From the NCBI GenBank assembly GCA_965237955.1, contig OZ250169.1:7872001-7936000 (forward strand): a DNA stretch of 64,000 nucleotides, in the 5' to 3' direction. Shown piece by piece: positions 210 through 56,174 of the stretch. The stretch's first letter is position 1; the number at the start of each line of letters is the position of its first letter. The position numbers and the translations under genes were made by a program. The stretch is from Candidatus Marinacidobacterales bacterium (GTDB lineage: Bacteria > Acidobacteriota > Vicinamibacteria > Marinacidobacterales > SMYC01). The notes beneath the pieces are model-generated. The model was not told the origin of the DNA. It did no database searches and saw nothing but the letters and a program-made list of their open reading frames with translations.

Positions 210-270
210 CGTCCTGTGCCAAAACTCGGCCCTTTTGAAATAGACCATTAATCAGCAGCTTAGTGTCTGT

Positions 271-460
271 TGTGCCTTCTATTTATTCATCCGCGCGTCC
301 CGAACTTGATTGATCTTCGGTCTACCAGCACCATGCCGGCATGATTTCGTCGTTGGTTCCCGCTCTCATCTCTGCCTTCAAGGTTCGTCGCGAGCTAGCT
401 CTCGAGAATGTCACTCTTCGGGAGCAGCTCGCCGTCCTCCACCATTCCGTGAAACGGCCG
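271..460 (+). mobile_element. End D (left) plus 5' remnant of a second integrase-core transposase
   Basis: TGTGCCTTCTATTTATTCATCCG, then ATG at 341 encoding MISSLVPALISAFKVRRELALENVTLREQLAVL; same end at 10790(-), 30001, 55203, 56098(-). Confidence 0.7.
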
Positions 461-744
461 CTGGTTTTGGTGCCGCGTAACCCGCTCGTGTGCTAGAGTT
501 TGAGCCTGATTTCGAGAGACGCAGTTCTTTCGGCGATGCGGGCTGGGCTGACCACACGGTGCCTGACGTTCAGAGACACCTTCGTGTGCACGCCGACATC
601 CTCATTAATGGCGTTCGCCGACACAGGCAGACCAGCTGACACTAGCATTCAAACACGGCGTAGCAACATATCTGGACTCCTCTAGTCAAGCCCCTTTCTT
701 AATAAATCTTCCATCGAAGCTGCGCATCCATCGCGTCGTGACGA

Positions 745-950
745 GTGGGTCAGACTGCAAACGTATCTTCGGCCTCAGTGAGGAGCGTCTTGGGTGCTCC
801 GGGCCATGATGGAAAATCCGCGCGCGAGGAGCCAATCACTTTGAACGACCTCTTAGGGCCAGTGTTGCTATCGGCTTGACCCCGCGCCGGTCCGACCGGT
901 ACGCCATCAGTTGGATGGGTATCGTCGCAGCCTCTTTTGGAAGGGAAAAA
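745..950 (-). ncRNA. Predicted bridge/seek RNA of the IS1111-type element (limits approximate)
   Basis: Contains segments matching the reconstructed target (861-870, 837-841) and the element's circle junction (806-814, 762-768). Confidence 0.8.
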
Positions 951-978
951 GGAAAACACGAAAGTGGAGCCTCTAAGT

Positions 979-2010
979 CTAAGCGGCCATCGGCGACTGG
1001 AATTCACTCTCGCGGGTGGAGACGGCCCAGACGATCCGGGCGAGTTTGTTGGCGACAGCAATCACGGCCTTGTTGTGTCCCCGCGAGCGGTGGACCTTCC
1101 GAGCCCAGGCGCGGAGCTTGTCGGGCGGGCTCTTACTGACGTTCGCCGCGCGGAGCACGGCGCGCCCGCCCTGGGTGAGGAGCATACGGAGGTAGGAGTC
1201 GCCACGCTTGGTGATGCGTCCGAGGCGGCGAATGTCGCCACTGGAGTTTTCCTTGGGAACTAGGCCGAGGTAGCTCGAGAAGCGGCGCCCCGATGGGAAG
1301 CGGCGAAGATCGCCGACGAAGCCCACGATGGCGGTCGCGGTCAGAAGTCCGATGCCGGGAATGGCGAGAAGTCGTTGGACTTCAGGAAGCTGCTTGGTGA
1401 GCGCCTTGAGCTCGTGCTCGATGCCAGCGCACTTGTCCTTGAGTTCTCGAATCTCGGAGCAGGCATCACGGAGATGCGAACGGAGCACGTCGGGCAAATC
1501 AGAATCAGCGTCTTCGACGAGTTCGAAGAGGGCGGGCACGACGAAGTGAGCGCCCTTTGGGATGATGAATCCGAGTTCGCGCAGGATCCCGCGTACGGCA
1601 TTGATGCGTGCGGTCCGTGTGGAGAGCCATCCTGAGCGCAGGCGATGGAGCGCGGCGAGGCTGTGCTGGTGCACGGACTTAATGGGCACGGGAAGAATCT
1701 CCTCGTTCCTGTAGGCCTCGAGCAACGCTTTGGCGTCGGCGCGGTCGTTCTTGCTCCCGCGTCGATAGGGCCTCACGAGGTGAGGTGGGAGCAGGACGAC
1801 GTCGTGTCCCAACCTTCGGAACGTCCTTGCCCAGAAGTGAGCAGAGCCGCAGGCTTCGAGAAGCACGGTGGCAGCGCTCTGTTTGGCAAAAAACGACACC
1901 AACTTGGGTCGACTCACACGGAGTTGCTTGGACACCTTCCCCGCTTCTCCCGAGATGGCAATCTCGAAGACGTTCTTTGCAAGATCCACAGCGATCGTCG
2001 TATCTTTCAT
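979..2010 (-). CDS. IS110 family DEDD recombinase/transposase
   Basis: IAVDLAKNVF, LLEAC, KNDRADA, YLGLVPKENSSG, ITKRGD motifs; AAGGAGG upstream of ATG at 2010. Confidence 0.95.
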   Translation of the reverse strand: MKDTTIAVDLAKNVFEIAISGEAGKVSKQLRVSRPKLVSFFAKQSAATVLLEACGSAHFWARTFRRLGHDVVLLPPHLVRPYRRGSKNDRADAKALLEAYRNEEILPVPIKSVHQHSLAALHRLRSGWLSTRTARINAVRGILRELGFIIPKGAHFVVPALFELVEDADSDLPDVLRSHLRDACSEIRELKDKCAGIEHELKALTKQLPEVQRLLAIPGIGLLTATAIVGFVGDLRRFPSGRRFSSYLGLVPKENSSGDIRRLGRITKRGDSYLRMLLTQGGRAVLRAANVSKSPPDKLRAWARKVHRSRGHNKAVIAVANKLARIVWAVSTRESEFQSPMAA

Positions 2011-2138
2011 TCGGACTCCTCCTTTTCGATGCGTATTCGACTGACTTTGGCACATCGATGCCGTCTATGTCAGCGGAGGAGTCCATTCCATCACTTGATG
2101 GCGGAAGCACTTGATGGCGGAAGCACCGAATAGAGTCC

Positions 2139-2798
2139 ATGCCGACGGCAAGAACCAGCGAGAGCCACCCACTGCGCATCACGGCTATGACCCTGGGCGA
2201 CGGCCGTGGCCGGATCGGCTTCTCGCAGTGCCCCGGTAGGATCGATCACTACGCAATATCCGGGCCCTGGAAGCGGGATCTCGACACCGACCTCGACGCG
2301 ATTCAGCGCTGGGGAGCGACTGCGGTGGTCAGCCTGATCACCCACGAAGAGATCCCCGATCTGAAGGTGCACGATCTCCCGAGGGCGGTTCGAGACCGGC
2401 ACATGGAGTGGTGGCATGCCCCGATTCCCGACGGAGAGGCACCGGAACAGGACTTCGAGCACGCCTGGAAGGCCACCGGCGAGTCCATCAGGAACCGGCT
2501 GCGGCTCGGCTTCGACGTGCTGCTCCACTGCCGGGGTGGTCTGGGACGCGCCGGGACCATCACAGCCCGCCTGCTGGTGGAGTTGGGCGTGCAACCGGAC
2601 GATGCGATCCGCCGCGTGCGCGACGCCCGCGAATGGACCATCGAGAACGGCTCCCAGCTGGCTCACGTGAGGCAGTGTTCGGCACAAGCACCATCGGTTC
2701 CATCCCGGACCGCGGACGACATCCACGACCGGGCGCTCGGGGCCTTCCTCGGTCTGGCGGTGGGCGACGCGGTCGGCACGACGCTCGAATTCTGCTCC
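2139..2798 (+). pseudogene. CDKN3/dual-specificity phosphatase fused to a truncated ADP-ribosylglycohydrolase
   Basis: HCRGGLGRAG P-loop; DRALGAFLGLAVGDAVGTTLEF start of the ADP-ribosylglycohydrolase domain, cut by end A. Confidence 0.85.
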
Positions 2799-4226
2799 CG
2801 TCCTGTGCCAAAACTCGGCCCTTTTAAAATAGGCCATAAATCAGCAACTTAGTGTCTGTGTTTGTGACCGGGCCAAGGGCCGTGGGCTTTACAATCGTCT
2901 TGGGCGGGCGGGTCGTCACCATGCAGATGACCACCTAGTCGAGAGCGAATATCGAAGCGTGTTCCTGAAGCTGTTTCCACGCTACGCCGGTCGAGCCCGC
3001 CGAGGGGCTACCGTCGCCGGCGACAATCTACGCGGCACGGCAGTAGTAGTTGAGAATGCCCCCAAGTCGCTCTCGCGACACGATGGGGCCAGCGTCATTC
3101 GCGCTTGCCGGCAGAGGTGTGAGGAGCTCGTTGCCGAGACCTTGGTGGTTCCGTTCTGTGTGATAGTGCACTACGTATTCGGTTACCGCTGTGCGCAGGT
3201 GTCGCTCACTGAGAGGTACGAAGCGGTCGAGACACTCTCGACGTATGGAGAGAACGAATCTTTCCGCATATGCGTTCAGATTCGGACTATTGGCGGGAAG
3301 GCGCAGGGGCTTCACGCCTGAATCTCTCAACAGCCCACGTACCGCCTCGGTGAATAGCGGGTCCCGGTCGTGGATGAGGTATCGCTTGCCAAGGAGGAAA
3401 CCATCCCACATGTCAGTGAGGTTTCTTGCCACCTGCTTCATCCACTCCCCGTTGGGGTCCGACGTTATCCCACCGATGCACACGCAGCGAGTGGCGATAT
3501 CGATGACAAACAGGACATGGTAGCGGACGAGCCCGAACGGGTTCACAACCTCGACGGTGAACAGGTCTGTCGCAGCGATGGCGCCCCAATGAGCCTTGAT
3601 GAAGGTGCTCCACGACATGCTCTTGCCCCGCTCCGGCGCAGGCGCGATACCGTGCTCGGCGAGGATCCTCTTGATAGTGTTGCGTCCGAGTTCATGTCCT
3701 AGGTTCTTGAGTGCGCCTCGCAGGCGCGTATATCCCCACGTCGGGTTCTCCTGCGCCACGCGCACAATGAGCTCACGGATGTCCTTCGCCGTCGGAGGCC
3801 GGCCTGGGCTCCGGTTCTTGCTGCCATCGTACTTGGCTGCGATGAGGCAGCGGTACCAACGCAGAAGCGTAGCGGGTGTGGCAACGGACGCAATCTGGGC
3901 CAGCGCCTCGCGGCCCAAAGCCTGGGCCTTGACGGCGAGCCTGCGCCGCTCGTCGTCCGAGAGCCTGAGACGCTTGCCCCGAAGCCCGGCTCGGAGCACA
4001 CGGTTCTCCTCTTGCAGGTAGTCGATCACATCCTGCTGCTGGCGGTTGACCCAGCCAGCTAGAACGAGCAGTAGGAATTGCACGTGGTACGTCATCATGG
4101 ATCTGAAGATAACACCCTCGGGCCAGACGATTGTAAAGCCTACGGCCCTTGGCCCCGGCGCAAACACAGACACTAAGCTGCTGATTTATGGTCTATTTCA
4201 AAAGGGCCGAGTTTTGGCACAGGACG
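2799..4226 (-). mobile_element. Complete rve (integrase-core) insertion element with ~100-bp terminal inverted repeats
   Basis: End A in inverted orientation on both sides of one DDE gene; no target-site duplication. Confidence 0.9.
3028..4098 (-). CDS. Integrase-core (rve) DDE transposase, 356 aa
   Basis: [17 protein letters not shown]; AATDLF / IHDRDP / [19 protein letters not shown] triad; [11 protein letters not shown]; [11 protein letters not shown]. Confidence 0.92.
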
Positions 4227-8154: not shown

Positions 8155-8298
8155 AGGTCCGCGTCGTGTTCAAAAAACACAAACGCGTTGCCAAGCCCTT
8201 GATGGTGGCGCTCTCCATGATAATGATAGATGAACTCGGCGACGGCCCCGCGCGCAGGTCTTAGAGTTCGTTTGTATTTTTGGACACGACGCGCTCGA

Positions 8299-9495
8299 CT
8301 AGGCGGGCTTGCTCCACCACCATCTCGGCGCACGCCGCGCGCCGCCGGCCAAGAGCGTATCCAGCAAGAGCATGGGTCGTCTCAGAAACGACCCCATGAG
8401 TCGGAAGCGGATCTTGTTCACCCAACGCGGGTAGCCCCGGTTGTAAGGACAGACTCTCAAGCAAATGGAACAATCGGTGACTTGCTTCACCCAAAAGCTG
8501 AAGCATTTTTCGGCGTCGGTGGTCCACTTCTTGACGCCGCGGATGTTGGATCGGTTGTATATCCGCTTCGATGGGTCGTCCCAGGTAATCGCCTGAGGGG
8601 GACACTCCGCGCTGCAGCGTCGGCATGTGTTGCAGAACTCTTTTACACCGAACCTCTTCGGCCGGTCGTGACCGAGCGGCAGATCGGTAAACACCTTTCC
8701 GATTCGTAAGCGCGGTCCCAGCTCTTCGGTGATGAGCAGACCGTGGCGGCCGTATTCGCCGAGTCCCGCCTTGATCGCGTAAGGAATGCTAGCCGCAGTG
8801 TCGTTCATACTGGCGTAGGCCCGATACCCCAGGTTGCGGATGTATTGCGCGAGTGCCAGCAAAGTCACTGCGTCTTTAGAATAGCCGACCCCGGTCGCGG
8901 TCCCGCTGAGAGCCGAGGGGACGGTCTTGAGGAGGTCATGATCCATCTCATGCACCACCACGATGACCGAGGTCATCCCCTCCGGGAGATCCATGGGCGC
9001 CTCGCCCTCGGTGGCCCGGTTATATTTGTGGCTATAGACCCATCGTTCGTCGTAATAGGTGATACCTGTCAGATCGGCCCCCATTAGCTTGGCGACCTTC
9101 TTGATCTCCCGACTCATCTCCTCCGGGTCGCGGATCTCGCGCTGCTCGCTCGCGCCCTCACGGTGTGCGGTCAGATAGTCGAGAAAACCCTCGCGTCGAT
9201 CTTCGTGAAGAAGCCTCTCGGCGAAAAAGTCTGCGACGTGCCAACCTGCGTTACGGAGGGCGAAGTCCTTTTGGTGATAGCCATCGACGTGACGCCATTC
9301 CTCCAAGGGGAGACGATAGGATTGATAGAACTTATCGGTGTCTTTCGACCGAATGGTGGAATCCCAGAAGGAACGGCTGAAGATGTCCTCTCTTTGATTG
9401 AAGCGGCGGAAATCTTCGCTGATTTCGAACCGGGCGTCCTCGTCGGTGGCACAAGGGCGTCGGCACGTCGTGCATTTCGAGTGGTGTTTGCTCAT
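8299..9495 (-). CDS. Reductive dehalogenase-like cobalamin/2x[4Fe-4S] protein
   Basis: AGLGEYGRHGLLITEELGPRLRIGKVFTDLPL; FCNTCRRCSAECP and C...CSICLRVCP ferredoxin motifs; GADLTGI. Confidence 0.85.
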   Translation of the reverse strand: MSKHHSKCTTCRRPCATDEDARFEISEDFRRFNQREDIFSRSFWDSTIRSKDTDKFYQSYRLPLEEWRHVDGYHQKDFALRNAGWHVADFFAERLLHEDRREGFLDYLTAHREGASEQREIRDPEEMSREIKKVAKLMGADLTGITYYDERWVYSHKYNRATEGEAPMDLPEGMTSVIVVVHEMDHDLLKTVPSALSGTATGVGYSKDAVTLLALAQYIRNLGYRAYASMNDTAASIPYAIKAGLGEYGRHGLLITEELGPRLRIGKVFTDLPLGHDRPKRFGVKEFCNTCRRCSAECPPQAITWDDPSKRIYNRSNIRGVKKWTTDAEKCFSFWVKQVTDCSICLRVCPYNRGYPRWVNKIRFRLMGSFLRRPMLLLDTLLAGGARRAPRWWWSKPA

Positions 9496-10225: not shown

Positions 10226-10617
10226 CGTCCTGTGCCAAAACTCGGCCCTTTTGAAATAGACCATAAATCAGCAGCTTAGTGTCTATGGTGCGCTCCCGTG
10301 AACGGCTTGGCGGGTTGCTACGTTTCTACCATAGGGAAGCCGCATGAGTATTTTGACCTTACGGGCACTCCCACAGGAAACGGGGAGAAACAGATAGGGC
10401 GCGCCTACGGAGCACCGTGCCAGCCCTCGACCCTACCGCGATGGAGCCTGACCAGAAGCCTGCTGGGCCGGACAGTTCCCCCGCTGATGCCCAGGGTGCC
10501 GACTATAATAGTGAGGGAGCCTCATCGGTGGGCCTTTTATTGGCCCGGTCGCAAACACAGACACTAAGCCGGTGATTTATGGTCTATTTCGAAAGGGTCG
10601 AGTTTTGGCACAGGACG
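10226..10617. mobile_element. Non-autonomous ~390-bp end-A miniature element
   Basis: Two inward-facing A ends with no transposase; left part repeated at 49506-49645. Confidence 0.8.
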
Positions 10618-10861: not shown

Positions 10862-12073
10862 ATGCCAGATGTCAATCCAGAGATTTTGCGTTGGGCCCGC
10901 GAGACTGCGGGACTTGAGTCGGAGGAAGCGGTGGAGAAGCTGCAGCTCCGAGCAGCACGCGGCCAATCCGCTCTTGAGCGGTTAGCGGCGCTGGAGGCTG
11001 GTGACTATAAGCCGTCTCGGACCATGCTCGTAAGGATGGCGAGGCACTATCGACGCCCGCTCCTTGCTTTCTACTTGTCCGCTCCGCCTCGGCGCGGTGA
11101 CCGCGGCCAGGATTTCCGAACACTTCCGGAAAGCCACTCAGGTGCTGACGACGCACTGCTCGATGTTCTGATTCGCGATGTCCGGGCCCGTCAGAGCATG
11201 GTTCGGGCGCTAATGGAAGATGAAGAGGAGGCTGAACTGCTTCCCTTCATCTCATCCTTGAAGCTTTCCGACTCGCCGTCAATTTTCGTGAAGTCGATTC
11301 GTTCAACACTTCAGGTTAGCGTAGAAGATTTCCATTCTCAGCCGTCTCCACAGAAGGCCTTCGGTCTACTACGTCGCCAAGCTGAGAGCGTTGGCGTTTT
11401 CGTGCTCTTGATGGGCAACGTTGGTACTTACCACACAGCCATAGATCTTGAGACGTTCCGAGGGTTCGCACTGGCGGACGACGTTGCCCCGTTCGTCGTC
11501 ATCAACGATCAGGATTCAAGGGCCGCGTGGTCATTCACCCTCGTGCACGAACTGACGCATTTGTGGCTCGGACAAACCGGGGTCAGCGGCTATTTTGCAG
11601 AGCTCGCAGTCGAACGGTTCTGCAACGATGTCGCAGGCGAATTCCTTCTCCCAGCGGATGAGCTGCAGCAACTGCAGCTTGACGATAGACCCGATGAAGC
11701 AACACTCCAGGAGCGGATTGGTGAATTCGCTGCGGGAAGGAACGTGAGTGGATCGATGGTTGCCTACAGCCTGTATCGGAAGCGGATGATTGAGCAAGAA
11801 GTCTGGAAGCGACTCAGCGCGGCATTTCGCACTTTTTGGTCACGAGAACGGACATCCCAGCGAGACCGCGCGCGCGATGAAGAAGGCGGGCCGAACTATT
11901 ACGTTGTACGACGACATCGTCTCGGTCGCGCGTTGACTGATCTGGTCGGCCAGATGGTTACGGCAGGAGCGCTCACGTCCACTAAAGCAGCTAAGGTTCT
12001 CGGAGTCAAGCCCAAGCAGGTCCAGGTCCTGCTCGACACGGGCGAGCAGGGCGGTAAGCGGTCGCTGGCGTAG
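10862..12073 (+). CDS. XRE-HTH / ImmA-IrrE family metallopeptidase
   Basis: NPEILRWARE HTH; FTLVHELTHLWL HEXXH; ERFCNDVAGEFLLP. Confidence 0.9.
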   Translation: MPDVNPEILRWARETAGLESEEAVEKLQLRAARGQSALERLAALEAGDYKPSRTMLVRMARHYRRPLLAFYLSAPPRRGDRGQDFRTLPESHSGADDALLDVLIRDVRARQSMVRALMEDEEEAELLPFISSLKLSDSPSIFVKSIRSTLQVSVEDFHSQPSPQKAFGLLRRQAESVGVFVLLMGNVGTYHTAIDLETFRGFALADDVAPFVVINDQDSRAAWSFTLVHELTHLWLGQTGVSGYFAELAVERFCNDVAGEFLLPADELQQLQLDDRPDEATLQERIGEFAAGRNVSGSMVAYSLYRKRMIEQEVWKRLSAAFRTFWSRERTSQRDRARDEEGGPNYYVVRRHRLGRALTDLVGQMVTAGALTSTKAAKVLGVKPKQVQVLLDTGEQGGKRSLA

Positions 12074-12082
12074 AGACCACAA

Positions 12083-12586
12083 GTGCACTTGCTTGACTCT
12101 AACGTTCTCATCGACGCGAACCGCGACTATTATTCTATCTCTCGGGTACCAGAGTTCTGGAATTGGCTCGTCGATCTCGGCGCGAGGGAACTTGTCAAGA
12201 TACCACTGGAGATGTTTGAGGAGATCAAAGACGGCGACGATGATTTGGGAGAATGGATTCGGCAAGACGAAATCAAAGGTGCACTTCTGCTTCACGAGGA
12301 GGCTGATGTTGCGTTGGTTTCTCTGGTCACCAACGAAGGCTATGCACCTGATCTTACCGACGACGAGATAGAAAAGATTGGTCGTGACCCATTCCTAGTT
12401 GCGTACGGCCTCGGTAACGAAAACGAGCGCTGTATTGTTACTACGGAGACTTCCAGACCGTCTCGACGCCGCGCGAACCGACATGTCCCAGATGTTTGCA
12501 GTGGTCTGGGTGTTCGCTGTTGCAACACCTTTGAGTTCGTCCGCGAGTTCGACTTCACAACAAATTGGAAGCTGGGGCGGCGGTGA
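12083..12586 (+). CDS. DUF4411-type PIN-like protein
   Basis: HLLDSNVLIDANRDYY...PEFWNWL...DPFLVAY...VTTE...VPDVC; usual partner of HTH-ImmA genes. Confidence 0.8.
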   Translation: MHLLDSNVLIDANRDYYSISRVPEFWNWLVDLGARELVKIPLEMFEEIKDGDDDLGEWIRQDEIKGALLLHEEADVALVSLVTNEGYAPDLTDDEIEKIGRDPFLVAYGLGNENERCIVTTETSRPSRRRANRHVPDVCSGLGVRCCNTFEFVREFDFTTNWKLGRR

Positions 12587-18528: not shown

Positions 18529-18540
18529 AGTATTACCTTC

Positions 18541-20686: not shown

Positions 20687-20711
20687 GCCGCCTGGCACGA
20701 TCCTCTCTCTC

Positions 20712-23756
<3,045 letters not shown>

Positions 23757-24504: not shown

Positions 24505-24505
24505 C

Positions 24506-25581: not shown

Positions 25582-26813
<1,232 letters not shown>

Positions 26814-36356: not shown

Positions 36357-36527
36357 CGTCCTGTGCCAAAACTCGCCCCTCTTGAAATAGACCACAAATC
36401 AGCAGCTTAGACGCCCTTGGAATCCGCCGACCCTTGGGCTGCGTGGCGAGCTGCGGGCAGCGGACTTCGCACCCGGAAGTCCCTCATTAGACTGGACTTT
36501 ATCGAGCACAAGAGCGAACGTTCGGTG

Positions 36528-36959: not shown

Positions 36960-36960
36960 C

Positions 36961-41017: not shown

Positions 41018-44000
41018 CCGCCGACCCCAAAGGTCGAGGCCTCTTCATCGTCGACAACAGCGTTTCCGGCTGGACGGGGCTCCGCTATCTCGAAGAGTGG
41101 TCCGGCATCGCCAAGGCGTTCGATATTGCGACGGGGTACTTCGAGATCGGCGCCTTGCTCGCCCTCGATGGCCAGTGGCAGTCACTTGACAACATCCGGA
41201 TTCTGATGGGCGCCGAGACGACGTATCGCACGCGCACAGCGCTGCTCGACGCTGTGCGGGCGCACGCGGTTCAGATCCTCGACGGGAGCCTTGAGGCGAA
41301 CAAGGATACCAACCCGTTCTTGCACGGCGTCCCGGCGATTCTCGACGCGCTGCGCTCCGGTCAGATCGAGTGCCGTGTCTACGACAAGAACAAGTTCCAC
41401 GCCAAGGCGTACATCACGCACGCGAAGCTTGAGGTGGTCGGCTCGCAGGCGCTGGTCGGGTCGAGCAACTTCACAGCACCTGGTCTTACGAAGAACATCG
41501 AGCTCAACATTCAGGTCCAGAGCGCACGCGAGGTTGCCCAACTTCAGGAGTGGTTCGAGGCGCACTGGAACGAGGCGGTCGAGGTCACTGACGCGATCGT
41601 CGAGATCATCTCGCGCCACACTGACCGCTACACGCCGTTCGATGTCTACGCCAAGGCGCTGCAGGAATACTTCCGCGGCCACGAGCTGACTGCGACCGAG
41701 TGGGATGAAACTCGCTCGAAGATGTTTTCCAGGATCGACCGCTATCAGCAAGAGGCCTACCGGGTGCTCATGAAGATTGCCCGCCAGCATGGCGGCGCGT
41801 TCCTGTGCGACGGCGTCGGCCTCGGCAAGACCTTCGTCGGCCTGATGCTGATCGAGCGGTTGGTGCTGCACGAAGGGAAGCGCGTGGTGCTCTTCGCTCC
41901 CAAGGCGACGAAGGAGGGCGTCTGGGAACCGCACCTGCGCGAGTGGTTGCCGCACATCGGCGGCGTCGGTGGGAACGCGGACTTCAGCAACCTCGCGGTC
42001 TTCAGCCACACGGACCTCGGACGCAAGGGTGACTTCCCGGAGAGGTTCCGACGCATCGCCGAGCTTGCAGACATCGTGGTGATCGACGAAGCGCACCACT
42101 TCCGCAACCCAGGGACACGGGGCGACGATGATGAGGACGCGGAACCGTCGCGCTACTATCGCCTCTACGACCTGCTCGACAACGCGGAGCGGCCCAAAAC
42201 CCTTTTCATGCTCACCGCCACGCCGATCAACAACCGGCTGAGCGACTTTCGGCACATGGCCGAGCTGTTCACGCGCCGAGACGAGACGTACTTCGCCCGC
42301 ACGTTGGGCGTCAACAACCTGCGCGCGCACTTCAACCAGATGGAGAAGGCCCTGCGCAATCGAGTCGGACACGACCTGACCGATGTCTCCGAACAGTTGA
42401 CCGAGACGCATGAGATCCTCTTCTCCGACCAGATCTTCCGCCACCTCGTCGTGCAGCGCAGCCGCGCCTACGCGCGCGAAAGCCAGATCCGCGAGACGGG
42501 GAAGACGGTCGCCTTCCCCGAGCGCAAGCCGCCGCAGGTAGCCGCGTACTCCATTCGTAAGACCTACGGGCGGCTGCTCGACATGTTCGAGAACGCGTTC
42601 ACGCGGCTGAACCCGCTGTTCGCGCTCCCGATGTACTACCCACTCGCCTGGTACAAGGGACCGGACACAAGCATCGATCCGTTCGAACAGAACCGGCAGA
42701 AGCAAGTCGTTGGCCTGATCCGTACGAACTTCCTCAAGCGCTTCGAAAGCTCCGTTGTCGCGTTCGAACTCTCCTGCGACCGGCTGCTCCGGAAGCTTCT
42801 GGCCTTCCTCAAGGTTCACAGCGAGACCGCTGCGGAGAAGAAGAAGCTTGAGCACTGGAAATCCGACAACGCTGAGATCCTTGGCTACGCACGTAGTCGG
42901 CAACTCGAGTTTTGGGGTCAGGACGGAGACGAGTCGGAGGACGAAGACATCGTTCCCCCGGAGATGCTAAACGCTGTTAAGAGGCTGGACAGAAAGCAGT
43001 TTGATGTACCAGCCATGATCACGGAAACTTTTCGTGATCTTGACCAGCTTGCGCACTTCACTGCCGAGGCCCGGAAGTTCGAGCCCAAGCACGACGATAA
43101 GCTCCAGAAGCTCAGTCGGCTGCTCAAGGCGAAAGAACTTGCCGACCAGAAGGTCCTCATCTTCACCGAGTTCGCCGACACTGCCCGCTACCTGAGGCGC
43201 CAACTCGGTCAAGCCGGCATTGACGGCGTCGCCCAGGTCGACAGCGCCTCCAAAGGCAACCGCGCCGACGTCATCCAGCGCTTCTCGCCCTACTACAACG
43301 GCCTCTCCTCGGCAGAGCTCGCTGAGAAGGGCCGCACGGAGATCCGCGTCCTCATTTCCACGGACGTCCTGTCCGAGGGCCTGAACCTCCAGGACGCGTC
43401 GCGAATGATCAACTACGACATCCACTGGAACCCGGTTCGTCTGATGCAGCGCATCGGCCGCGTGGATCGGCGCATGAATCCGGAAATCGAGAAACGACTG
43501 GTCGCCGACCACCCGGAGGTCGCTGGCTCCCGTGGGAAGGTGAGCTTCTGGAACTTCCTGCCGCCTGACGAGCTGAACGAGATCCTCACGCTCTACACCA
43601 AGGTCACGCAGAAGACGCTGCTGATCTCGAAGACGCTCGGGATCGAGGGCAAGAAGCTCCTGACCCCCAAGGACAACTTCGCCGCGCTCAAAGAGTTCAA
43701 TCACGCCTACGAGGGCACCAAGACCGCGGTCGAAGACATGCACCTCAAGTACCAGGCGCTGCTTCAGGCCGACCCCGAGCTGGAGGTGCGCCTCAAGCGC
43801 CTGCCCGGCGCCACCTTCAGCGGCCGTAAGCGCGTGGCCCAAGGGGCGCGCGGCGTGTTCTTCTGCTACACGCTTCCCGCCCTCGACAAGGAGGCGGGCG
43901 AGTTCACCGAGGCGGCGGGCACGACCCGCTGGTACCTCTACGACCTCGAACGCAAAGCCATTCTCGAAGAGCCGGGCGAGATCGTCGCGAGCATCCGCTC

Positions 44001-44163
44001 GAAGCCCGAGACGTCCCGGCGCTGCACCACGGAGGAGAAGACGCTCCTCCACATCCGCAAGCAGATCGAGAGGCACATCAAAAACAGCTACCTGAAGCGC
44101 GTGGACGCCCCCGTCGGCGTCAAGCCGCAGCTTCGCTGCTGGATGGAACTGAACGAGGGCTGA
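41014..44163 (+). CDS. PLD-nuclease / SNF2-like helicase fusion
   Basis: FHAKAY...GSSNFT PLD motif; DGVGLGKT; DEAHH; LTATP; SEGLNLQ; QRIGRVDR. Confidence 0.92.
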   Translation: MTADPKGRGLFIVDNSVSGWTGLRYLEEWSGIAKAFDIATGYFEIGALLALDGQWQSLDNIRILMGAETTYRTRTALLDAVRAHAVQILDGSLEANKDTNPFLHGVPAILDALRSGQIECRVYDKNKFHAKAYITHAKLEVVGSQALVGSSNFTAPGLTKNIELNIQVQSAREVAQLQEWFEAHWNEAVEVTDAIVEIISRHTDRYTPFDVYAKALQEYFRGHELTATEWDETRSKMFSRIDRYQQEAYRVLMKIARQHGGAFLCDGVGLGKTFVGLMLIERLVLHEGKRVVLFAPKATKEGVWEPHLREWLPHIGGVGGNADFSNLAVFSHTDLGRKGDFPERFRRIAELADIVVIDEAHHFRNPGTRGDDDEDAEPSRYYRLYDLLDNAERPKTLFMLTATPINNRLSDFRHMAELFTRRDETYFARTLGVNNLRAHFNQMEKALRNRVGHDLTDVSEQLTETHEILFSDQIFRHLVVQRSRAYARESQIRETGKTVAFPERKPPQVAAYSIRKTYGRLLDMFENAFTRLNPLFALPMYYPLAWYKGPDTSIDPFEQNRQKQVVGLIRTNFLKRFESSVVAFELSCDRLLRKLLAFLKVHSETAAEKKKLEHWKSDNAEILGYARSRQLEFWGQDGDESEDEDIVPPEMLNAVKRLDRKQFDVPAMITETFRDLDQLAHFTAEARKFEPKHDDKLQKLSRLLKAKELADQKVLIFTEFADTARYLRRQLGQAGIDGVAQVDSASKGNRADVIQRFSPYYNGLSSAELAEKGRTEIRVLISTDVLSEGLNLQDASRMINYDIHWNPVRLMQRIGRVDRRMNPEIEKRLVADHPEVAGSRGKVSFWNFLPPDELNEILTLYTKVTQKTLLISKTLGIEGKKLLTPKDNFAALKEFNHAYEGTKTAVEDMHLKYQALLQADPELEVRLKRLPGATFSGRKRVAQGARGVFFCYTLPALDKEAGEFTEAAGTTRWYLYDLERKAILEEPGEIVASIRSKPETSRRCTTEEKTLLHIRKQIERHIKNSYLKRVDAPVGVKPQLRCWMELNEG

Positions 44164-44167
44164 ACCG

Positions 44168-47100
44168 ATGCCGACCGACCACCGCGAACGCCTCGCACGC
44201 ATCCGCCGCTTCGACCAGCTCATCGCCTACCTGCGCGACGAGCTCGGCTGGCCGATCGATTCGGACGACTTCGAGGAGCTGACCTTCGAGTACACCCCGG
44301 AGGAGCTCGGGATCGACGCGAAGAACGCGGCCAAGATCCAGGAGATCAAGCGCCTGCGCCCGCTCGTGCCGGGCCAGCCCTGGGGCATCTTCTTCATCAA
44401 GTTCGAGCCGAAGCGCCTGCCCGTGGTGGCGCTGCGCCGCATCCTCGGCCAGGTGGCGCTCAAAAAGCGCGCCTCGGCCAACAAGTCCGAGCGCCAAGCC
44501 TGGGCCGCCGACGACCTGCTCTTCGTGTCCAACTACGGCGAGGGCGAGGAGCGCCGCATCGCCTTCGCCCACTTCTCGAAGCCCCAGGACGGCCACGACT
44601 TGCCGACCCTCAAGGTGCTCGGATGGGACAACCTAGACACGCCGCTCCACCTCGACGCCGTCGCCCGCGAGCTGAGCGACCACCTCGCTTGGCCCGATGA
44701 CGAGGAAGACACCGACGCCTGGCGCGAGCGCTGGCGCGACGCCTTTAAGCTGCGCCACCGCGAGGTCATCACCACCTCGAAGGAGCTCTCCGAGCGCTTG
44801 GCCGAGCTAGCCCGCGCGATCCGCGACCGCATCCGGACGGCGCTCGCCATCGAGACCGAGACTGGTCCGCTCACGAAGCTCATGAAGGCGTTCCAGACCG
44901 CACTCGTCCACGCCCTGGACAAGGCCGGCTTCTCCGACATGTACGCCCAGACGATCGCCTACGGCCTGCTCTCGGCCCGTATCACCGACCCCGCGCGGCG
45001 TACCGCCGACGACTTCGCCGCCCACATGCGGACGAACCCGTTCCTCCGGGAGATGATGGAAACCTTCCTGCGCGTGGGCGGACGCCGCGGCAAAGCCGGC
45101 GGGTCAGGCATCGACTTCGACGAGCTGGGCGTCTCCGAGGTGGTGGAGCTCCTCGACCGGGCCAACATGGAGGAGGTGGTCCGCGACTTCGGCGACCGCA
45201 ACCCCCAGGAAGACCCGGTCATTCACTTCTACGAGCACTTCCTCGCCGCCTACGACAAGAAGCAGAAGGTGAGCCGCGGCGTCTTCTACACCCCGCGCCC
45301 CGTGGTCTCCTACATCGTGCGCTCGGTGGACGAGCTGCTGCGCACAGAGTTTGGGCTAGAGGATGGCCTCGCCGACACCACGACCTGGAGCGAGATGGCG
45401 AGGCGCCACGAAGATCTGGAAATCCCGGAAGGCACCTCGCCCGATCAGGCCTTTGTCCAGATCCTCGACCCGGCCACCGGAACCGGCACTTTCCTCGTCG
45501 AGGTCATCGACCTCATCCACGACACGATGGTCGAGAAGTGGAAGGCCCAGGGTCACGGCGAGAAGAAGATCCAGGCGCTCTGGAACGAGTACGTCCCGAG
45601 GCACCTCTTGCCGCGCCTGCACGGCTACGAGCTGCTGATGGCCCCGTACGCCATCGCCCATCTCAAGATCGGCCTCAAGCTCTCCGAGGCCGGCTACCGC
45701 TTCGCAAGCGACGAGCGGGCGCGGGTGTACCTGACGAATGCGTTGGAGCCAGCGGGGGACGAGCAGCTCATGCTCGACTTCCTGCCCGCGCTGGCGCACG
45801 AGGCCAAGGCGGTCAGTGAAGTCAAGCGAAAGCATCGGTTCACGGTCGTGATTGGGAATCCGCCGTACTCAGGGCTCTCCTCGAACATGGGGCCCTGGGT
45901 AGACGGCCTCCTGAAGGGTCGGCTACCCGATGGAACCCGGACCGAGAGCTACTACCATGTCAATGGGGAGCCGCTGGGCGAACGGAAGGTGTGGCTGCAA
46001 GACGACTACGTGAAGTTCGTTCGGATCTCCCAGTGGCTTCTGGACCGTACGAGCGTCGGGATTCACGGCTACATCAGTAACCACGGGTACATCGACAACC
46101 CCACGTTCCGCGGCATGCGCTGGTCTCTGATGCGCTCTTTCAACCGGGTTCGTGTGCTCGACCTCCACGGGAACCTTAAGAAAAGAGAGATTGCGCCGGG
46201 AGGGGGGCGGGACGTCAACGTGTTCGACATCCAGCAAGGCGTGGCGATCGGGCTGTTCACGAAGCTTGGCTCGGCGGCCGCACGCGTCAGCCACTCCGAT
46301 CTCTGGGGCGAGCGGGAAGATAAGTACGGCTGGCTTCTGGATCATGACTCCGGCGATACCGAATGGACCGAGTTCACCCCCGGCGCGTCCTTCTACCTCT
46401 TTAAGCCGTTCGACGACACGGGCGTTGACAGTTACTACGATTGGCAGGCAATCAACGAAGTCATGCCCGTGAACGTGACGGGCATCGTCACTGCGCGGGA
46501 CGACTTTGTTATAGACTTGGACCGGGAATCTCTTCGAAGTCGTATCGTGGACCTCCGTTCCAAATCCCTGTCCGACGACGCGATCCGGAAGAAATACTTC
46601 ACTGGAAAGGGCTCCAAGAAGTATCCGCCAGGGGATTCCAGGGGTTGGAAACTACCCGAGGCTCGGCGGAAGATCCGCGAAGACCATCAGTGGGACCGAC
46701 GGTATGTCCCGGTGCTTTATCGCCCGTTCGACATACGTGAGATGTACTACGTCCCCTGGATGGTGGATTGGCCCCGGACGAAAGTCATGCGACATATGCT
46801 GGCAGGGGAGAATCTCGCGCTGATTACTTCCCGCATGACGAAAGGTGAGGTCTTTAAGCACGCTCAGGTGACTCGGAACATCGCTGAAGTCATCTGTATG
46901 TCACCTAAGACTTCGAACAACGGGTTCGTCTTTCCAATCTATCTCTACCCCAGCGTCGGAAAGGTCGACGCGTCGCTGTTCAGCCGCTGGCCCAAGGGGG
47001 AAGGTGGTCGCACGCCGAACTTGGACTCAGACTTCATCGATCGGTTGGTGACTGCCGTGGACCTGCACTTCGTTAGCGACGGCCGCGGTGACCTCCGTCG

Positions 47101-47659
47101 GTCTTTCGGTCCAGAAAATGTCCTCGCCTACATCTACGCGGTGTTCCACAGCACCGGATATCGAGAGCGCTACGACGCACAGCTCAAGCTCGACTTCCCC
47201 CGCGTGCCGCTGCCTGGGGGTGCCGACCTCTTCCGGAAACTGGTGAAGGCCGGCCATGACGTGCTCGCCCTTCACCTCCTCGAGTCAACGAAGCTCAACG
47301 AGTTCATCACCACCTACACCGGACCCCCGAATCCCGATGTCGGCCGCGTCGGTTGGTCGAACGGCACCGCGTGGGTCAACGCCGGCAAGACCAACGCCCG
47401 CGAAGGCCATTACGCCACCAAGCCCGGGACTTTTGGCTTCAAGGGCATGCCCGAGGAGGTCTGGAGCTTTCACATCGGCGGCTACCAGGTCTGCCACAAG
47501 TGGCTGAACGACCGGAGGGGTCGCACGCTCGCAGATGAGGACATCGCCCACTACAACAAGATCGTCGTCGCCCTCGCCGAAACGCTCCGACTGATCAAGG
47601 AGATCGACGACGTCATCGAGAAACACGACGGGTGGCCCGGGGCTTTTCAGGCCGCTTAG
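44168..47659 (+). CDS. N6-adenine DNA methyltransferase with Type ISP-like C-terminal specificity domain
   Basis: FYEHFLAAYD...RGVFYTP, ILDPATGTGTF, IGNPPY, YRPFD, IGGYQVCHKWL. Confidence 0.92.
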   Translation: MPTDHRERLARIRRFDQLIAYLRDELGWPIDSDDFEELTFEYTPEELGIDAKNAAKIQEIKRLRPLVPGQPWGIFFIKFEPKRLPVVALRRILGQVALKKRASANKSERQAWAADDLLFVSNYGEGEERRIAFAHFSKPQDGHDLPTLKVLGWDNLDTPLHLDAVARELSDHLAWPDDEEDTDAWRERWRDAFKLRHREVITTSKELSERLAELARAIRDRIRTALAIETETGPLTKLMKAFQTALVHALDKAGFSDMYAQTIAYGLLSARITDPARRTADDFAAHMRTNPFLREMMETFLRVGGRRGKAGGSGIDFDELGVSEVVELLDRANMEEVVRDFGDRNPQEDPVIHFYEHFLAAYDKKQKVSRGVFYTPRPVVSYIVRSVDELLRTEFGLEDGLADTTTWSEMARRHEDLEIPEGTSPDQAFVQILDPATGTGTFLVEVIDLIHDTMVEKWKAQGHGEKKIQALWNEYVPRHLLPRLHGYELLMAPYAIAHLKIGLKLSEAGYRFASDERARVYLTNALEPAGDEQLMLDFLPALAHEAKAVSEVKRKHRFTVVIGNPPYSGLSSNMGPWVDGLLKGRLPDGTRTESYYHVNGEPLGERKVWLQDDYVKFVRISQWLLDRTSVGIHGYISNHGYIDNPTFRGMRWSLMRSFNRVRVLDLHGNLKKREIAPGGGRDVNVFDIQQGVAIGLFTKLGSAAARVSHSDLWGEREDKYGWLLDHDSGDTEWTEFTPGASFYLFKPFDDTGVDSYYDWQAINEVMPVNVTGIVTARDDFVIDLDRESLRSRIVDLRSKSLSDDAIRKKYFTGKGSKKYPPGDSRGWKLPEARRKIREDHQWDRRYVPVLYRPFDIREMYYVPWMVDWPRTKVMRHMLAGENLALITSRMTKGEVFKHAQVTRNIAEVICMSPKTSNNGFVFPIYLYPSVGKVDASLFSRWPKGEGGRTPNLDSDFIDRLVTAVDLHFVSDGRGDLRRSFGPENVLAYIYAVFHSTGYRERYDAQLKLDFPRVPLPGGADLFRKLVKAGHDVLALHLLESTKLNEFITTYTGPPNPDVGRVGWSNGTAWVNAGKTNAREGHYATKPGTFGFKGMPEEVWSFHIGGYQVCHKWLNDRRGRTLADEDIAHYNKIVVALAETLRLIKEIDDVIEKHDGWPGAFQAA

Positions 47660-48052: not shown

Positions 48053-48946
48053 TCAGAGGTCATCTGGATAGGCCTGGACGAGACGATTCAGGTCGTTGCC
48101 ATCAATCGTCCCGTAGTAGGCTGGCGTTCCGCTCATCGACTTCGCGACGCTGAACGCTTGGAGTTGCTCGGTAATGCTCTCGTCTATCTTGCCGTGGTAC
48201 ACAACGAAAAAAACCTCTGCGGCGCTGCCGATCAAGCGCGCGATCTGATCTCCGTTCTTGCCCATCATTTTCGGAGTTAGAGTGCCCTTGGTCCCTTTTC
48301 CCTTGAACGCGAACGCCGCCGCTTTTCGCTTTCCGTCCAGTTTCAGCTTCTTGGTGAATAGGTCGTTCTTCTCCCCGCCCCAATCTTTGAACTCGTAGCC
48401 TTCGCCAATGATCTTTTGGATTCTCTTCTTGATGCGACTTTCCGCCCAAGCGCCGAGGCGCAGAGACTTGTCGATGGTATTGACGGAACGAACTTTGCAA
48501 AAAGAGTCGACGTCGTCGATCGTGATCGGCTTAGCTTTGGGTCGCTTGCCGGGTACGACGATGTTGTAGGTCGTCGACGCCGCTGCGCCCTTGGGAGCCT
48601 GCTTGGTCGGGAACTTCTTTACCTTGGATGGATCGTCGACGAGTCTAAGGATCTTGTCCCTGTGGCGTGAGTAGAACTCGTCTTTCAGGTAGGCGTAGGT
48701 ATTCGTGCCATCTAGCTTCTTTCTTCCCACGATTTGATCGGCGTAAAGTTTTTGCGCTTCCTGGTTTGTGCGCACTATGGAAAGCCCCGTCGCCGCCATA
48801 ATCTCCATGATGGTCTTCGCCTTTTTCTTGCCGCGGTAGATCGCTTCGAAGACCTGACGTCGATGCCTTGAGCGTCCGATAGTGTTCACCGCGTGAACAA
48901 TGTTCTCGTTCGAGTTTGCTCGGACGTCCGCAACCTTGGTCGGCAT
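48053..48946 (-). CDS. Hypothetical protein: wHTH-like N-terminus, restriction-endonuclease-like C-terminus
   Basis: RRQVFEAIY...TIMEIMAATGLS; E...DWGGEKNDLF...AFAFKG...GKNGDQIARL. Confidence 0.55.
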   Translation of the reverse strand: MPTKVADVRANSNENIVHAVNTIGRSRHRRQVFEAIYRGKKKAKTIMEIMAATGLSIVRTNQEAQKLYADQIVGRKKLDGTNTYAYLKDEFYSRHRDKILRLVDDPSKVKKFPTKQAPKGAAASTTYNIVVPGKRPKAKPITIDDVDSFCKVRSVNTIDKSLRLGAWAESRIKKRIQKIIGEGYEFKDWGGEKNDLFTKKLKLDGKRKAAAFAFKGKGTKGTLTPKMMGKNGDQIARLIGSAAEVFFVVYHGKIDESITEQLQAFSVAKSMSGTPAYYGTIDGNDLNRLVQAYPDDL

Positions 48947-53380: not shown

Positions 53381-53798
53381 GCGCGTCCTGTCCAAAAACA
53401 CAAACGAACTCAAGACTGGCGCGCCGGGACGTTTCGGATCAGAGACGTCTGAGGCTTGGTTGGCCAATGGAAAGCTAGAATCCTAGGTCATGAGGAGGCA
53501 GAGCCAGCCCTGGACATAGTTGGTCGTCGCCATCCCTGGTTGGATCCAGCGTGACCAACAGGCCGCTATTCGTTTGTGTTTTTGGACACGACGCCTGACG
53601 ATGAGAGAACTGTGTCTTCAGAATTCTGGTTCAAACTCTAGCACGCAGACCGGTTAGGGGTTGGCCGCCAACACTTAATTGCGGAAGCACCAAACTGCCT
53701 GTAACCAGGATGCTTTGGTCGTCTTCATGTAGGACGTCTTTAGGGTCGGCGTCCGCTCCATCGGCTATTTCAAAAAGGCTGAGTTTTGGCACAGGACG

Positions 53799-54485
53799 GG
53801 TTCACCACCTCGACGGTGAACAGGTCTGTCGCAGCGATGGCGCCCCAATGAGCCTTGATGAAGGTGCTCCACGACATGCTCCTGCCCCGCTCCGGCGCAG
53901 GAGCGATACCGTGCTCGGCGAGGATCCTCTTGATAGTGTTGCGTCCGAGTTCATGTCCGAGGTTCTTGAGTGCGCCTCGCAGGCGCGTATATCCCCACGT
54001 CGGGTTCTCCCGCGCCACGCGCACAATGAGCTCACGGATGTCCTTCGCCGTCGGAGGTCGGCCTGGACTCCGGTTCTTGCTGCCATCGTACTTGGCTGCG
54101 ATGAGGTGGCGGTACCAGCGCAGAAGCGTAGCGGGTGTGGCAACGGACGCAATATGGGCCAGCGCCTCGCGGCCCAAAGCCTGGGCCTTGACGGCGAGCC
54201 TGCGCCGGTCGTCGTCCGAGAGCCTGAGACGCTTGCCCCGAAGCCCGGCTCGGAGCACACGGTTCTCCTCTTGCAGGTAGTCGATCACATCCTGCTGCTG
54301 GCGGTTGACCCAGCCAGCCACAACGAGCAGTAGGAATTGCGCGTGGTACGTCATCATGGAGCTGAAGATAACACCCTCGGGCCAGACGATTGTAAAGCCT
54401 ACGGCCCTTGGCCCCGGCGCAAACACAGACACTAAGCTGCTGATTTATGGCCTATTTCAAAAGGGCCGAGTTTTGGCACAGGACG
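53799..54485 (-). mobile_element. rve element truncated by another end A inside its transposase gene
   Basis: Matches about 3540-4226; end A abuts at 53798. Confidence 0.9.
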
Positions 54486-54605
54486 CGGTCGGCCCTGAAT
54501 GCCTCAACTTGACAGTAGTTTCCGGATTCGGTAGTGCCGCAGTATCAAACTGCGGCACTACCCCGGATTCGCAACAATAGCGCATCCTTTCCCTGGGGAT
54601 TCGCG

Positions 54606-54983
54606 ATGAAGATTTATCGCCTCTGTCGGAAACCCGCCGTCACCGTCCCAGCCCTCGCTTCGGTCAAAGAAGCGCTTGAATTGATGACGAAAGAGAAAGT
54701 CGGCGCGGTCGTGGTGCTTGAGAACGAGGAGGCCGCTGGCATGTTCACGCGCCGAGATGCCATCGAGCGCGTGGTGCTCGAGAAGCTGTCTCTCGGCGAG
54801 CTGGGCGACGCCCTGAAGATGATGGTGGCAAGGCCCTTCAACCACATCCCGGTCGTCGACTCCGAATCGAAGGTTGTGGGCCTCGCCACAACGAAGCCTC
54901 TGATGAAACAGACTATCGAGAAGCTCTCAGACGAGGTGGGGTCACTCGAAGCCTACATCACCGCCGACGGGATTGGTGGTTGA
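54606..54983 (+). CDS. CBS-domain protein (possibly internally deleted)
   Basis: SVKEALELMTKEKVGAVVV...GMFTRRD; NHIPVVD...VVGL. Confidence 0.75.
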   Translation: MKIYRLCRKPAVTVPALASVKEALELMTKEKVGAVVVLENEEAAGMFTRRDAIERVVLEKLSLGELGDALKMMVARPFNHIPVVDSESKVVGLATTKPLMKQTIEKLSDEVGSLEAYITADGIGG

Positions 54984-55653
54984 CGGGTTCTTTCGCCATC
55001 AAGTGCTAGCGACTGCGGGCAGAGGCACGATGTCGGGAGAGAGCGGGTTGCGCGCCTCCGTGAACAGGAATACCTCAACCCCGAGAGCCGATGCTCTGTC
55101 GTCAGGACGTCAATGGCCTGACGACGTGCGGCCGGCGTTACCGTTTTCGGCTTAGAACATCCTTGATTGCGGCGTTCTCGAGGGCGAGTTCGGCGTACAT
55201 CCTGTGCCTTCTATTTATCCATCCGCGCGCACCGAATTTGACTTGTCCCTTCCACTTGTCCCTTCCATAAACTCGAGCTGTATGAGATTGGCGAACTGCC
55301 TACAACCAGGATGCTTTGGTCGTCTTCATGTAGGATGTTTTAAGAGCCGGTGTCGGCTCTACTCAGGGGTAGAGGTGTAAGCTGGTGCGAAGTCCGGCAG
55401 CCGTTCCGAGCGGATCGGCTCAAGCAGCGCGTCGAGAGTAATAATGATGGAGACCACCGACCTTTGGAATGGCCCTCACTCCCGTCCTGTGCCAAAACTC
55501 GGCCCTCTTGAAATAGACCACAAATCAGCAGCTTAGACGCCCTTGGAATCCGCCGACCCTTGGGCTGCGTGGCGAGCTACGGGCAGCGAACTTCGCACCC
55601 GGAAGTCCCTCATTAGACTGGACTTTATCGAGCAGAAGAGCGAACGTTCGGTG

Positions 55654-55951
55654 ATGCCGCAGGATACAGGGGTTGGCCGGATCGTCGTTTTGGACGGTTT
55701 GGACTTCGCCAGCTTACGGCGGGTCTGGGAGCAGGCCTTCGGGGCTGCTCCCCCACGCTCGCTCTCTCGCGTTTTCATGCACCGCGTTCTTGCGTACGAA
55801 CGCCAGTGCCGGACCCTTGGCTGGCATTCGGCCACAACCCGGCGCGCTCTGGCTGCCATGGCGAACGGGACGCCAGGCAACGGCGCCGCCGCTCCCGCAG
55901 GGTCCGTTTCTGCCGGCACCCATCTCGTCCGTGAGTGGAATGGCCGGACCG
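55654..55951 (+). pseudogene. DUF2924 gene truncated by end A
   Basis: Ends at VREWNGRT. Confidence 0.8.
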
Positions 55952-56174
55952 CGTCCTGTGCCAAAACTCGGCCCTTTAGAAATAGACCACAAATCAGCAG
56001 CTTAGACGCCCTTGGAATCCGCGCAGAATCCAGGGTATTTCGCACCGCAGGGCTGACTTCCGACCCATGGGCTGGCGGATGAATAAATAGAAGGCACAGG
56101 CTGGTGGACGCCTCCGAGGCTGGCTACGCGGTGGAGGAGCTTGATGCCATTGTAAGGGTTGGGAGGCTACCGAA

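Follow-up and report, generated by a model that had tools for sequence, protein, structure and literature searches.

Textbook DDE transposases join both ends of their element to one near-symmetric target site, and gene capture through one end or a cryptic end is a property of ISEcp1 (IS1380), which leaves 5-bp duplications, and of IS91/ISCR, IS91 being an HUH rolling-circle element. Among insertion sequences (IS), IS481 elements are described as generating duplications of 2-15 bp, mostly of 6 bp (PMC10045372), while single-end transfer has been proposed for IS26 (PMC10433875). In addition, IS-Del and Dup-IS-Dup events free of target duplications have been reported for IS5 and IS481 (PMC11708052), and long direct repeats of variable length (8-514 bp) for IS1549/IS1634, the paper proposing no mechanism (PMC2266710). 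In the present work we analyzed a 64-kb stretch of the genome of a Candidatus Marinacidobacterales bacterium (positions 7,872,001-7,936,000 of a single 8.13-Mb contig), hereafter the window, which is crowded with the ends of a 1,428-bp transposase element and of related elements. These ends are termed A, B and C, and a fourth kind is termed D; our C corresponds to D of a preliminary description of this DNA, and our D to its C. That description proposed an integron-like array of genes imported and reshuffled by one or a few rve transposases acting in trans. The junctions point instead, with a probability of about 0.6, to single-end polar strand transfer combined with selective trimming, helped by adjacent deletions of IS1, IS5 and IS6 elements.

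Junctions of the A, B and C Ends

The A terminus, 5'-CGTCCTGTGCC, was placed by comparing occupied with unoccupied sites. For 156 A ends an unoccupied copy of the flank exists in the genome, and identity between the two falls from 90-95% before CGTC to 37% at its first C, so that the terminus is fixed at this base. The empty A site reads A63 C61 C83 C70 | N G63 T54. An A end, which starts with CGTC, therefore stands beside the kept half gACCC, while the half NGT is dropped (gACCC|NGT), and in whole elements the flank is the ACCC side at both ends. A C at position -2 was found in 409 of 461 distinct A flanks, as well as in 211 of 234 A flanks at loci of other genomes. Two-ended insertion needs a statistically symmetric site, but the A site is asymmetric at every stagger from 0 to 10 bp, the largest asymmetry being at least 0.52 at each. 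The B and C ends have asymmetric profiles of their own, based on fewer cases (43 and 26 empty sites, respectively).

The preliminary description found no clear target duplication at any pair of ends in the window, and the same applies to the whole genome, where none of 120 facing A/B pairs carries a duplication of 4-40 bp. Furthermore, among 25 whole elements from other genomes no duplication exceeds 3 bp. Flank matches of 1-3 bp occur in 21 of 73 multi-copy elements and do not share one length. Within an element the flanks of the two ends are unrelated, and rejoining the flanks produced a contiguous empty site in none of the 55 pairs in which both flanks recur elsewhere. In the miniature families one flank is common and the other differs, as is often the case among copies of a 210-bp B-B family. 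The possibility that the CG of the terminus is a 2-bp duplication or a crossover core was rejected, as empty alleles have C there in only 38% of cases.

Transposases and Their Elements

The window holds one whole A-A element at 2799..4226 (minus strand; 1,428 bp), with an A end on each side and no target duplication. The genome carries 23 whole copies, every one with different flanks and each with a single gene. In the window copy this is the cognate transposase P0001 (3028..4098, minus strand; 356 aa), which comprises N-terminal helices, a helix-turn-helix and an RNase H-like core. Residues D178, D244 and E279, and also D246, are invariant across 76 sequences, and the fold is integrase-like, with Foldseek matches to Mos1, IstA, TnsB and retroviral integrases. 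The best-scoring family for P0001 is IS481 (NF033577), at 99.3 bits against a cut-off of 224. The IS3 profile NF033516 gives 83 bits against a cut-off of 160, P0001 being a single open reading frame (ORF), and no IS6 match was obtained at E 0.01. A C-type paralogue scores 79.9 bits with the IS481 profile (cut-off 224). The family to which A, B and C are assigned is an unclassified one of DD(34)E transposases, IS481/IS3-like but below both cut-offs.

The B ends lie about 123 bp ahead of paralogues elsewhere in the genome that are 47-58% identical to P0001, and the C ends about 70 bp ahead of a 339-351-aa paralogue of approximately 29% identity. The D ends are IS1-like rather than rve ends and flank a frameshifted IS1-like gene, the pieces of which match NF033558 at E 2e-10, under the cut-off, along with the IS1 zinc domain. 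IS1 has GGT-type ends. The earlier statement that a single cognate transposase is intact is accurate for the window but not for the genome, in which 23 near-full, stop-free P0001-type copies (at least 90% identity) were detected, besides 11 full-length paralogues of lower similarity. With 23 intact A-type genes, separate B and C paralogues, IS1-like D ends, and IS5- and IS6-type elements lacking duplications in the same DNA, the idea of one or a few rve transposases finds no support. Most A bodies are shortened, approximately 40 of 181 of the main subtype being full length, while a third A subtype runs into a DUF2924 gene and a large serine recombinase.

Homologues of P0001 amount to at least 7,990 proteins, which are named 'transposase' or unnamed and reach Myxococcota, Gemmatimonadota and Streptomyces plasmids. 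The plasmid homologues are 'integrase core domain' proteins, mostly of Streptomyces. Similar termini were seen beside about half of 20 inspected homologues at 59-87% identity, other phyla included. At two Streptomyces plasmid loci (L129 and L130) no end array was seen, and at L130 one 31-bp inverted repeat surrounds the gene. A link to CGTC-tagged repetitive extragenic palindromic (REP) repeats, described as short stem-loop repeats without a dedicated transposase (PMC3733652), was considered and rejected: the ends are inverted repeats of the 1.43-kb transposase element.

Islands in the Genome and in Relatives

The genome contains 503 A, 183 B, 115 C and 185 D ends (about 986 in all). Counting them genome-wide, as the preliminary description had suggested, revealed clear clustering, given that 651 of the 686 A/B ends fall in 14 islands totalling 1.67 Mb. 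The array is consequently not a local one, since the window represents 64 kb of approximately 1.7 Mb of such island DNA. Among 40 relatives the A motif was detected in 10, with 29-511 copies in nine and 2 in one, while the reversed control gave zero. Of 16 genomes compared, nine carry the transposase gene at 94-99% DNA identity. These are exactly the A-end-rich ones and span two families; the other seven have no such gene at that identity. A degenerate end motif searched in 250 other genomes of the phylum gave a single match in each of two, which is the level of the reversed control, so that no arrays were found outside the order among the genomes searched.

Some further features of the islands were recorded. 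The large ones flank dnaA (2,352,347-2,353,693) on both sides, at 7.8-8.1, 0.1-1.15, 2.0-2.4 and 2.8-3.7 Mb, and there are none in the opposite half, at 4.7-7.3 Mb. Across the islands at 0.1-1.2 Mb the GC skew is close to zero. A 19.9-kb segment is duplicated at 99.8% between islands (136621-156501 and 495924-515812), with borders off the A-D ends. A repeat class starting with GGTAGG follows CCC-type flanks in at least 17 places, e.g., 292745, 368548 and 436334, and may be one more end type of the A/B/C family. Several small-share metagenome runs are labelled sponge metagenome; no habitat is claimed.

Composites in Long Direct Repeats

Two composites were found within long direct repeats whose limits coincide with the termini. 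The first, of 2,843 bp, lies between two core genes at 2.55 Mb in an 88-bp direct repeat (97%), one copy of which stops at a B terminus while the other begins at the opposite B terminus. This core locus was judged by comparison with relatives: the flanking core genes are collinear in G005 and G015, which have other DNA in the gap, and are not adjacent in G013 and G018. The second composite, of 14,806 bp, has a whole element on each side, lies inside another IS and is flanked by an 869-bp repeat (100%). Duplications of 88 and 869 bp are what two separate joins would give.

Position of Ends Relative to Genes

The gene tests were performed on 159 of the 686 A/B ends, namely those with a unique flank in which no other end occurs; 800 motif-matched core sites and 800 island sites served as nulls. 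A coding frame is cut at 27 ends (17%), compared to 65% in both nulls. Moreover, 73 ends (46%) follow a stop, against 12-16% in the nulls, and 19 (12%) lie within 60 bp of a stop, against less than 2%. The closeness of ends to intact genes noted in the preliminary description thus withstands comparison with a null. The ends are also found at rearrangement breakpoints: 35 of 386 borders of low-copy duplications coincide with an A/B terminus, while the null has a mean of 1.6 and a maximum of 6. The trimming it proposed is exemplified by a sodium:neurotransmitter symporter gene, the two island copies of which are cut by A ends at points some 41 bp from each other, the cut in the second copy lying deeper in the gene.

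Proposed Mechanism and Alternative Explanations

Based on the above, it is likely that each A, B or C end joins target DNA alone, at a polar site resembling the end-flank junction. The transposase would nick one end and transfer the nicked strand to an end-like target at its scissile position; the crossover would then be finished by replication or by host enzymes that process the junction. One such event would produce a deletion, an inversion or a cointegrate. Two events would place an element or a composite between two independent sites and would leave deletions or long duplications of any length. Repeated events would shorten element bodies to end-only remnants and would nibble neighboring DNA up to a useful gene, in which case selection would leave ends near intact genes. 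The IS1-like (D), IS5-type and IS6 elements would contribute ordinary adjacent deletions in the islands.

A number of observations weigh against this reading. The mechanism is deduced from end products, and the gene-cutting test employs our own dicodon coding model rather than curated genes. Mirror-class ends amount to at most 1.4% in a mixture estimate that is partly circular, because its profile comes from the same flanks. Clean long duplications number only two among 12,739 end pairs, five more being ambiguous, and none was found in 761 end pairs from other genomes. Reciprocal end-free junctions were sought and not identified, the matches being other repeat ends. When the other half of the target site was searched for, it was found for 16 of 199 A/B ends at scattered offsets, with no 8-bp class; the commonest offset, -3 (4 of 22 rows, three doubtful events), may reflect a rare two-ended 3-bp mode. 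Ends with different bodies occur in 34 of 59 shared-flank clusters. Six of the seven junctions with different canonical ends have empty copies and are multi-copy hotspots, hence their re-use explains these junctions, and end-for-end swapping is weakly supported. The DUF2924-serine recombinase unit is present in all nine end-rich relatives. Finally, duplications are lacking in other elements as well: the IS5-type (50 copies) has no consistent one, IS6 has none in 10, and the D elements are likewise without. This loss being common to the IS5-type, IS6 and D elements, polarity alone sets A apart.

The last point speaks for an ordinary IS graveyard, in which two-ended or replicative transposition was followed by adjacent deletions and homologous recombination that erased the duplications and swapped the flanks. 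All 126 IS5-type ends are in or near the same islands, and 39% of the island DNA is multi-copy. Adjacent deletion and recombination are, moreover, given as standard causes of missing duplications (PMC11708052). However, these processes cannot polarize the half of the site that is kept. The IS5-type and D elements retain few partner half-sites, but at one fixed stagger (5 of 61 ends, all at 9 bp, and 3 of 35 ends at 8 bp, respectively), which A and B do not. For IS21 the other half-site was found at 36 of 54 ends, at 5-8 bp, and a match of at least 4 bp is kept in 22 of 34 copies (boundary slip allowed), including 8 of the 14 inside islands. We therefore regard the graveyard as unlikely, if far from negligible.

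Another explanation, which we consider improbable, takes the DUF2924-associated large serine recombinase as the enzyme, the A ends as relaxed attachment half-sites and the rve gene as a passenger. The respective unit has approximately 22 near-full genome copies with varying far ends, nearly all of them 600-700 bp behind an A end. Copies at 94-98% identity exist in all nine end-rich relatives and in none of the other seven genomes. Serine recombinases are not known to leave a duplication. Nevertheless, the symmetry of the outer site bases centers on one base rather than on a 2-bp core, and the site lacks a fixed dinucleotide. In addition, A-like ends directly flank rve homologues in other phyla, and B and C possess their own rve paralogues and target profiles. 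About as improbable are integron-like cassettes, bounded by ends and imported and reordered as units by a transposase in trans, as initially proposed. They would agree with the ends close to intact genes, with the recurrence of a dehalogenase gene beside other neighbors and with the two composites inserted as units. Yet ends were found at both borders in just 1 of 193 low-copy duplicated segments, and no cargo block cited in the preliminary description sits inside a mini-element, each being located on the outer, target side of the ends next to it. The same cargo has different borders in other genomes, end orientations are mixed, and no common promoter or fixed entry site was seen, all of which speaks against the cassette model.

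An assembly chimera at repeats appears highly improbable. The genome is a single contig with 6.2% marker duplication, and no record over 8100-24000 spans a cargo block, an end and the next block. Nevertheless, the same cargo, continuing for 23-50 letters into the same ends, is present in contigs of four runs from three studies, which cannot confirm block order. At the junction of a C end with the ImmA gene, one record reads through with more than 31 letters on each side. The best-matching run among these may be the source sample itself. The same ends and the same bias in their flanks also recur in nine other assemblies, in tens to hundreds of copies, and misjoins inside repeats cannot yield a polar consensus outside the termini.

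Beyond single-end polar transfer and trimming, a wider proposition can be put forward more tentatively, at somewhat less than even odds: a large, unnamed DDE family may have abandoned two-ended insertion for relaxed polar single-end recombination, and in these acidobacteria may have made more than one fifth of the chromosome into a shared zone of gene exchange that trims itself and spreads between genera and families. No description of this family or of its islands was found in the literature searched, which was mostly open-access; this does not demonstrate absence from print. If true, one-end joining at a polar 7-bp site would constitute a new reaction mode in the commonest class of mobile-DNA enzymes. 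It could then explain long variable duplications, missing duplications and family-less 'integrase core domain' genes. Such joining would, in addition, provide a mechanism by which megabase variable regions, of the kind that cannot be assembled from short reads, could arise.

Ends and Cargo of the Window

The preliminary description counted about 52 ends, in good agreement with the 53 that a relaxed scan placed within 210-56098 (25 A, 10 B, 8 C and 10 D). Positions matched by both the A and B patterns were merged, and two false D matches inside recombinase genes were removed. The window has 80 raw matches, far above the 0-5 of resampled windows (n = 10) and the 1-9 of 64-kb core windows (n = 12). 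The A ends are at 210+, 2799+, 4226-, 4366+, 8154-, 10226+, 10617-, 12609+, 17210+, 17663-, 23809+, 27237-, 29045+, 29908+, 35859+, 36357+, 40179-, 47722+, 48038-, 49506+, 51732+, 53798-, 54485-, 55483+ and 55952+. The B ends are at 8162+, 8291-, 9663+, 10740-, 17835-, 33977- (weak), 34152-, 39937-, 53384+ and 53593-, and the C ends at 271+, 10790-, 30001+, 35642+, 55203+, 55244+, 55257+ and 56098-, to which a 10-bp C stub at 23799 is additional. The D ends are at 2111-, 2127-, 9527+, 12684-, 16117+, 17627-, 32103+, 34205-, 47937+ and 53691-.

Three miniature elements are present, namely a B-B element of about 130 bp at 8162..8291 (termini from the relaxed scan; a 129-bp B-B family has 10 other genome copies), an A-A element of 392 bp at 10226..10617 (family of 6) and a B-B element of 210 bp at 53384..53593 (family of 9). 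The DUF2924 and large serine recombinase genes follow an A end at 23809..25585 (plus strand), where they are broken by an IS3-type element. They do so again at 36357..39937 (plus strand), accompanied by small ORFs and closed on the far side by a B end. A further unit of this kind lies at 61337-63357. An IS110-family gene (979..2055, minus strand) lies behind the doubled D end (2111-, 2127-). About five whole D-IS110-D units of 1.67 kb exist in the genome, e.g., at 876953-878621, and in them the gene lies 20 bp inside a D end; they may represent an IS1111-type element targeting the IS1-like end. Two inverted IS5-type elements at 30090-33888 form a 934-bp perfect inverted repeat.

Cargo was named with the use of Pfam, NCBIfam and PADLOC, and the gene-to-end distances quoted in the preliminary description held on re-measurement. 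An intact reductive dehalogenase (8299..9495, minus strand; TIGR02486 over the cut-off) has a B end 7 bp past its stop and a D end 31 bp before its start. It occurs in two identical genome copies, one with a B end and the other with an A end upstream. A 99% copy in another genus has other ends. An ImmA/IrrE-like peptidase and a DUF4411 (PIN) gene (10862..12586, plus strand) are located between a C end, 71 bp from the ImmA start, and an A end, 22 bp from the PIN stop; no close copy was found in 15 other genomes. A lexA-imuA-imuB-dnaE2 operon (17896..23756, plus strand) lies between a B end and the C stub with its A end. The distances are 25 bp from the B end to the lexA -35 box, and 42 and 52 bp from the dnaE2 stop to the stub and to the A end, respectively. 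The operon is about 77% identical (77% also for dnaE2) to a second, end-free copy at 5.95 Mb, and this identity suggests that the window copy was likely imported; no operon near-identical over its length was found in the other genomes searched.

The symporter gene mentioned above (27315..28778, plus strand) is a 96-97% copy of an end-free locus at 4.26 Mb, with 27316-28957 as the near-identical stretch copied from this host locus (96%). A block comprising higA, a PLD-SNF2 helicase and a type IIG restriction-modification gene (40586..47659, plus strand) is bracketed by two A ends, at 40179 and 47722, and occupies their target side. Next to it, a 297-aa gene (48053..48946, minus strand), intact and single-copy, has an A end 14 bp past its stop and gave no Pfam, NCBIfam or PADLOC match; it is kept between two A ends.

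Genes said to be cut exactly at an end were verified for the most part. A carbamoyltransferase C-terminal fragment (9..209, minus strand; PF16861) is cut at A end 210, and a phosphatase-ADP-ribosylglycohydrolase fusion (2139..2798, plus strand) at A end 2799, with only the first 19 residues of the ADP-ribosylglycohydrolase part remaining (PF03747, weak). The istB gene, whose name is inferred from its place behind the IS21 istA, is cut after about 23 codons at 51732. One of the two TIR genes of the window cargo is cut at 29908. The name of the 'glycosyl hydrolase' fragment could not be confirmed, as it had no Pfam match.

Regarding host DNA, the fpg region (56164..57777, plus strand) is a 99.3% copy of the host's own locus, which is end-free and lies at 2.18 Mb. 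The region is single-copy in five of five relatives, and the borders of the window copy are not at A-D ends. Such host-locus copies (fpg region, symporter) could contribute to the marker duplication mentioned above. Furthermore, a segment at 5748-7773 contains a terminase-like gene and an HNH gene along with the beginning of another phage-like gene, which an element remnant truncates; an identical second copy exists at 0.90 Mb. A tandem array of 15-bp repeats occupies 34337-34723 within the ORF at 34094-34894. A comEC gene is present in the genome.

Comparison with Known Systems

Like integrons, the islands are a variable region in which genes for defence, repair and detoxification abound and short repeats lie close to the borders of genes. 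They differ in having no unit cassettes, in mixed orientation and in a DDE enzyme in place of a tyrosine recombinase. A single match exceeded the cut-off of the integron integrase profile TIGR02249; it is at 3.346 Mb of the genome, about 3.6 Mb from the window on the circular map. This match (3346207-3347146) is split in two frames and lies about 4.5 kb from a small A/B island. With respect to the D ends, the IS1-type pieces are under the cut-off, and the three partner half-sites at 8 bp compare with the 8-9-bp duplication of IS1.

The closest enzymes are those of IS481, with which the family shares a single-ORF DDE transposase with an rve core and HTH, terminal inverted repeats, and a TGT that lies 5 bp inside the A/B termini and forms the C terminus. 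On the other hand, P0001 falls below the 224-bit cut-off, A and B start with CGT instead of showing TGT...ACA, the target is polar, and the 2-15-bp duplication of IS481 was not found. IS3 has two frameshifted ORFs and a duplication of 3-5 bp, in contrast to the single ORF and missing duplication observed here. Nevertheless, the first step of IS3 copy-out resembles the proposed reaction, as do ISEcp1 and IS91/ISCR, in that a lone end, or an end paired with a cryptic end-like sequence, is active and takes up neighboring genes. The IS3 donor end joins the end side of its target, whereas here the flank side would be joined.

The proposed one-ended DDE action by single-strand transfer would also be shared with IS26/IS6 in its targeted conservative mode, along with cointegrates, adjacent deletions and mosaic gene regions. 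However, IS26 needs a second, sequence-identical end, while short cryptic sites in any DNA appear to suffice here, and the copy-in mode of IS26 with its 8-bp duplication was not seen. Duplications of variable length are common to the present system and to IS1549/IS1634. The latter have IS4-related enzymes and repeats around single copies, while here two clean composites are involved and no whole 1.43-kb element. Finally, as in IS-Del and Dup-IS-Dup events, elements are located at deletions or between the copies of a long duplication, with no target duplication. Those events occur occasionally beside normal insertions, whereas in this genome they are the sole pattern seen in hundreds of junctions, at a fixed polar target.

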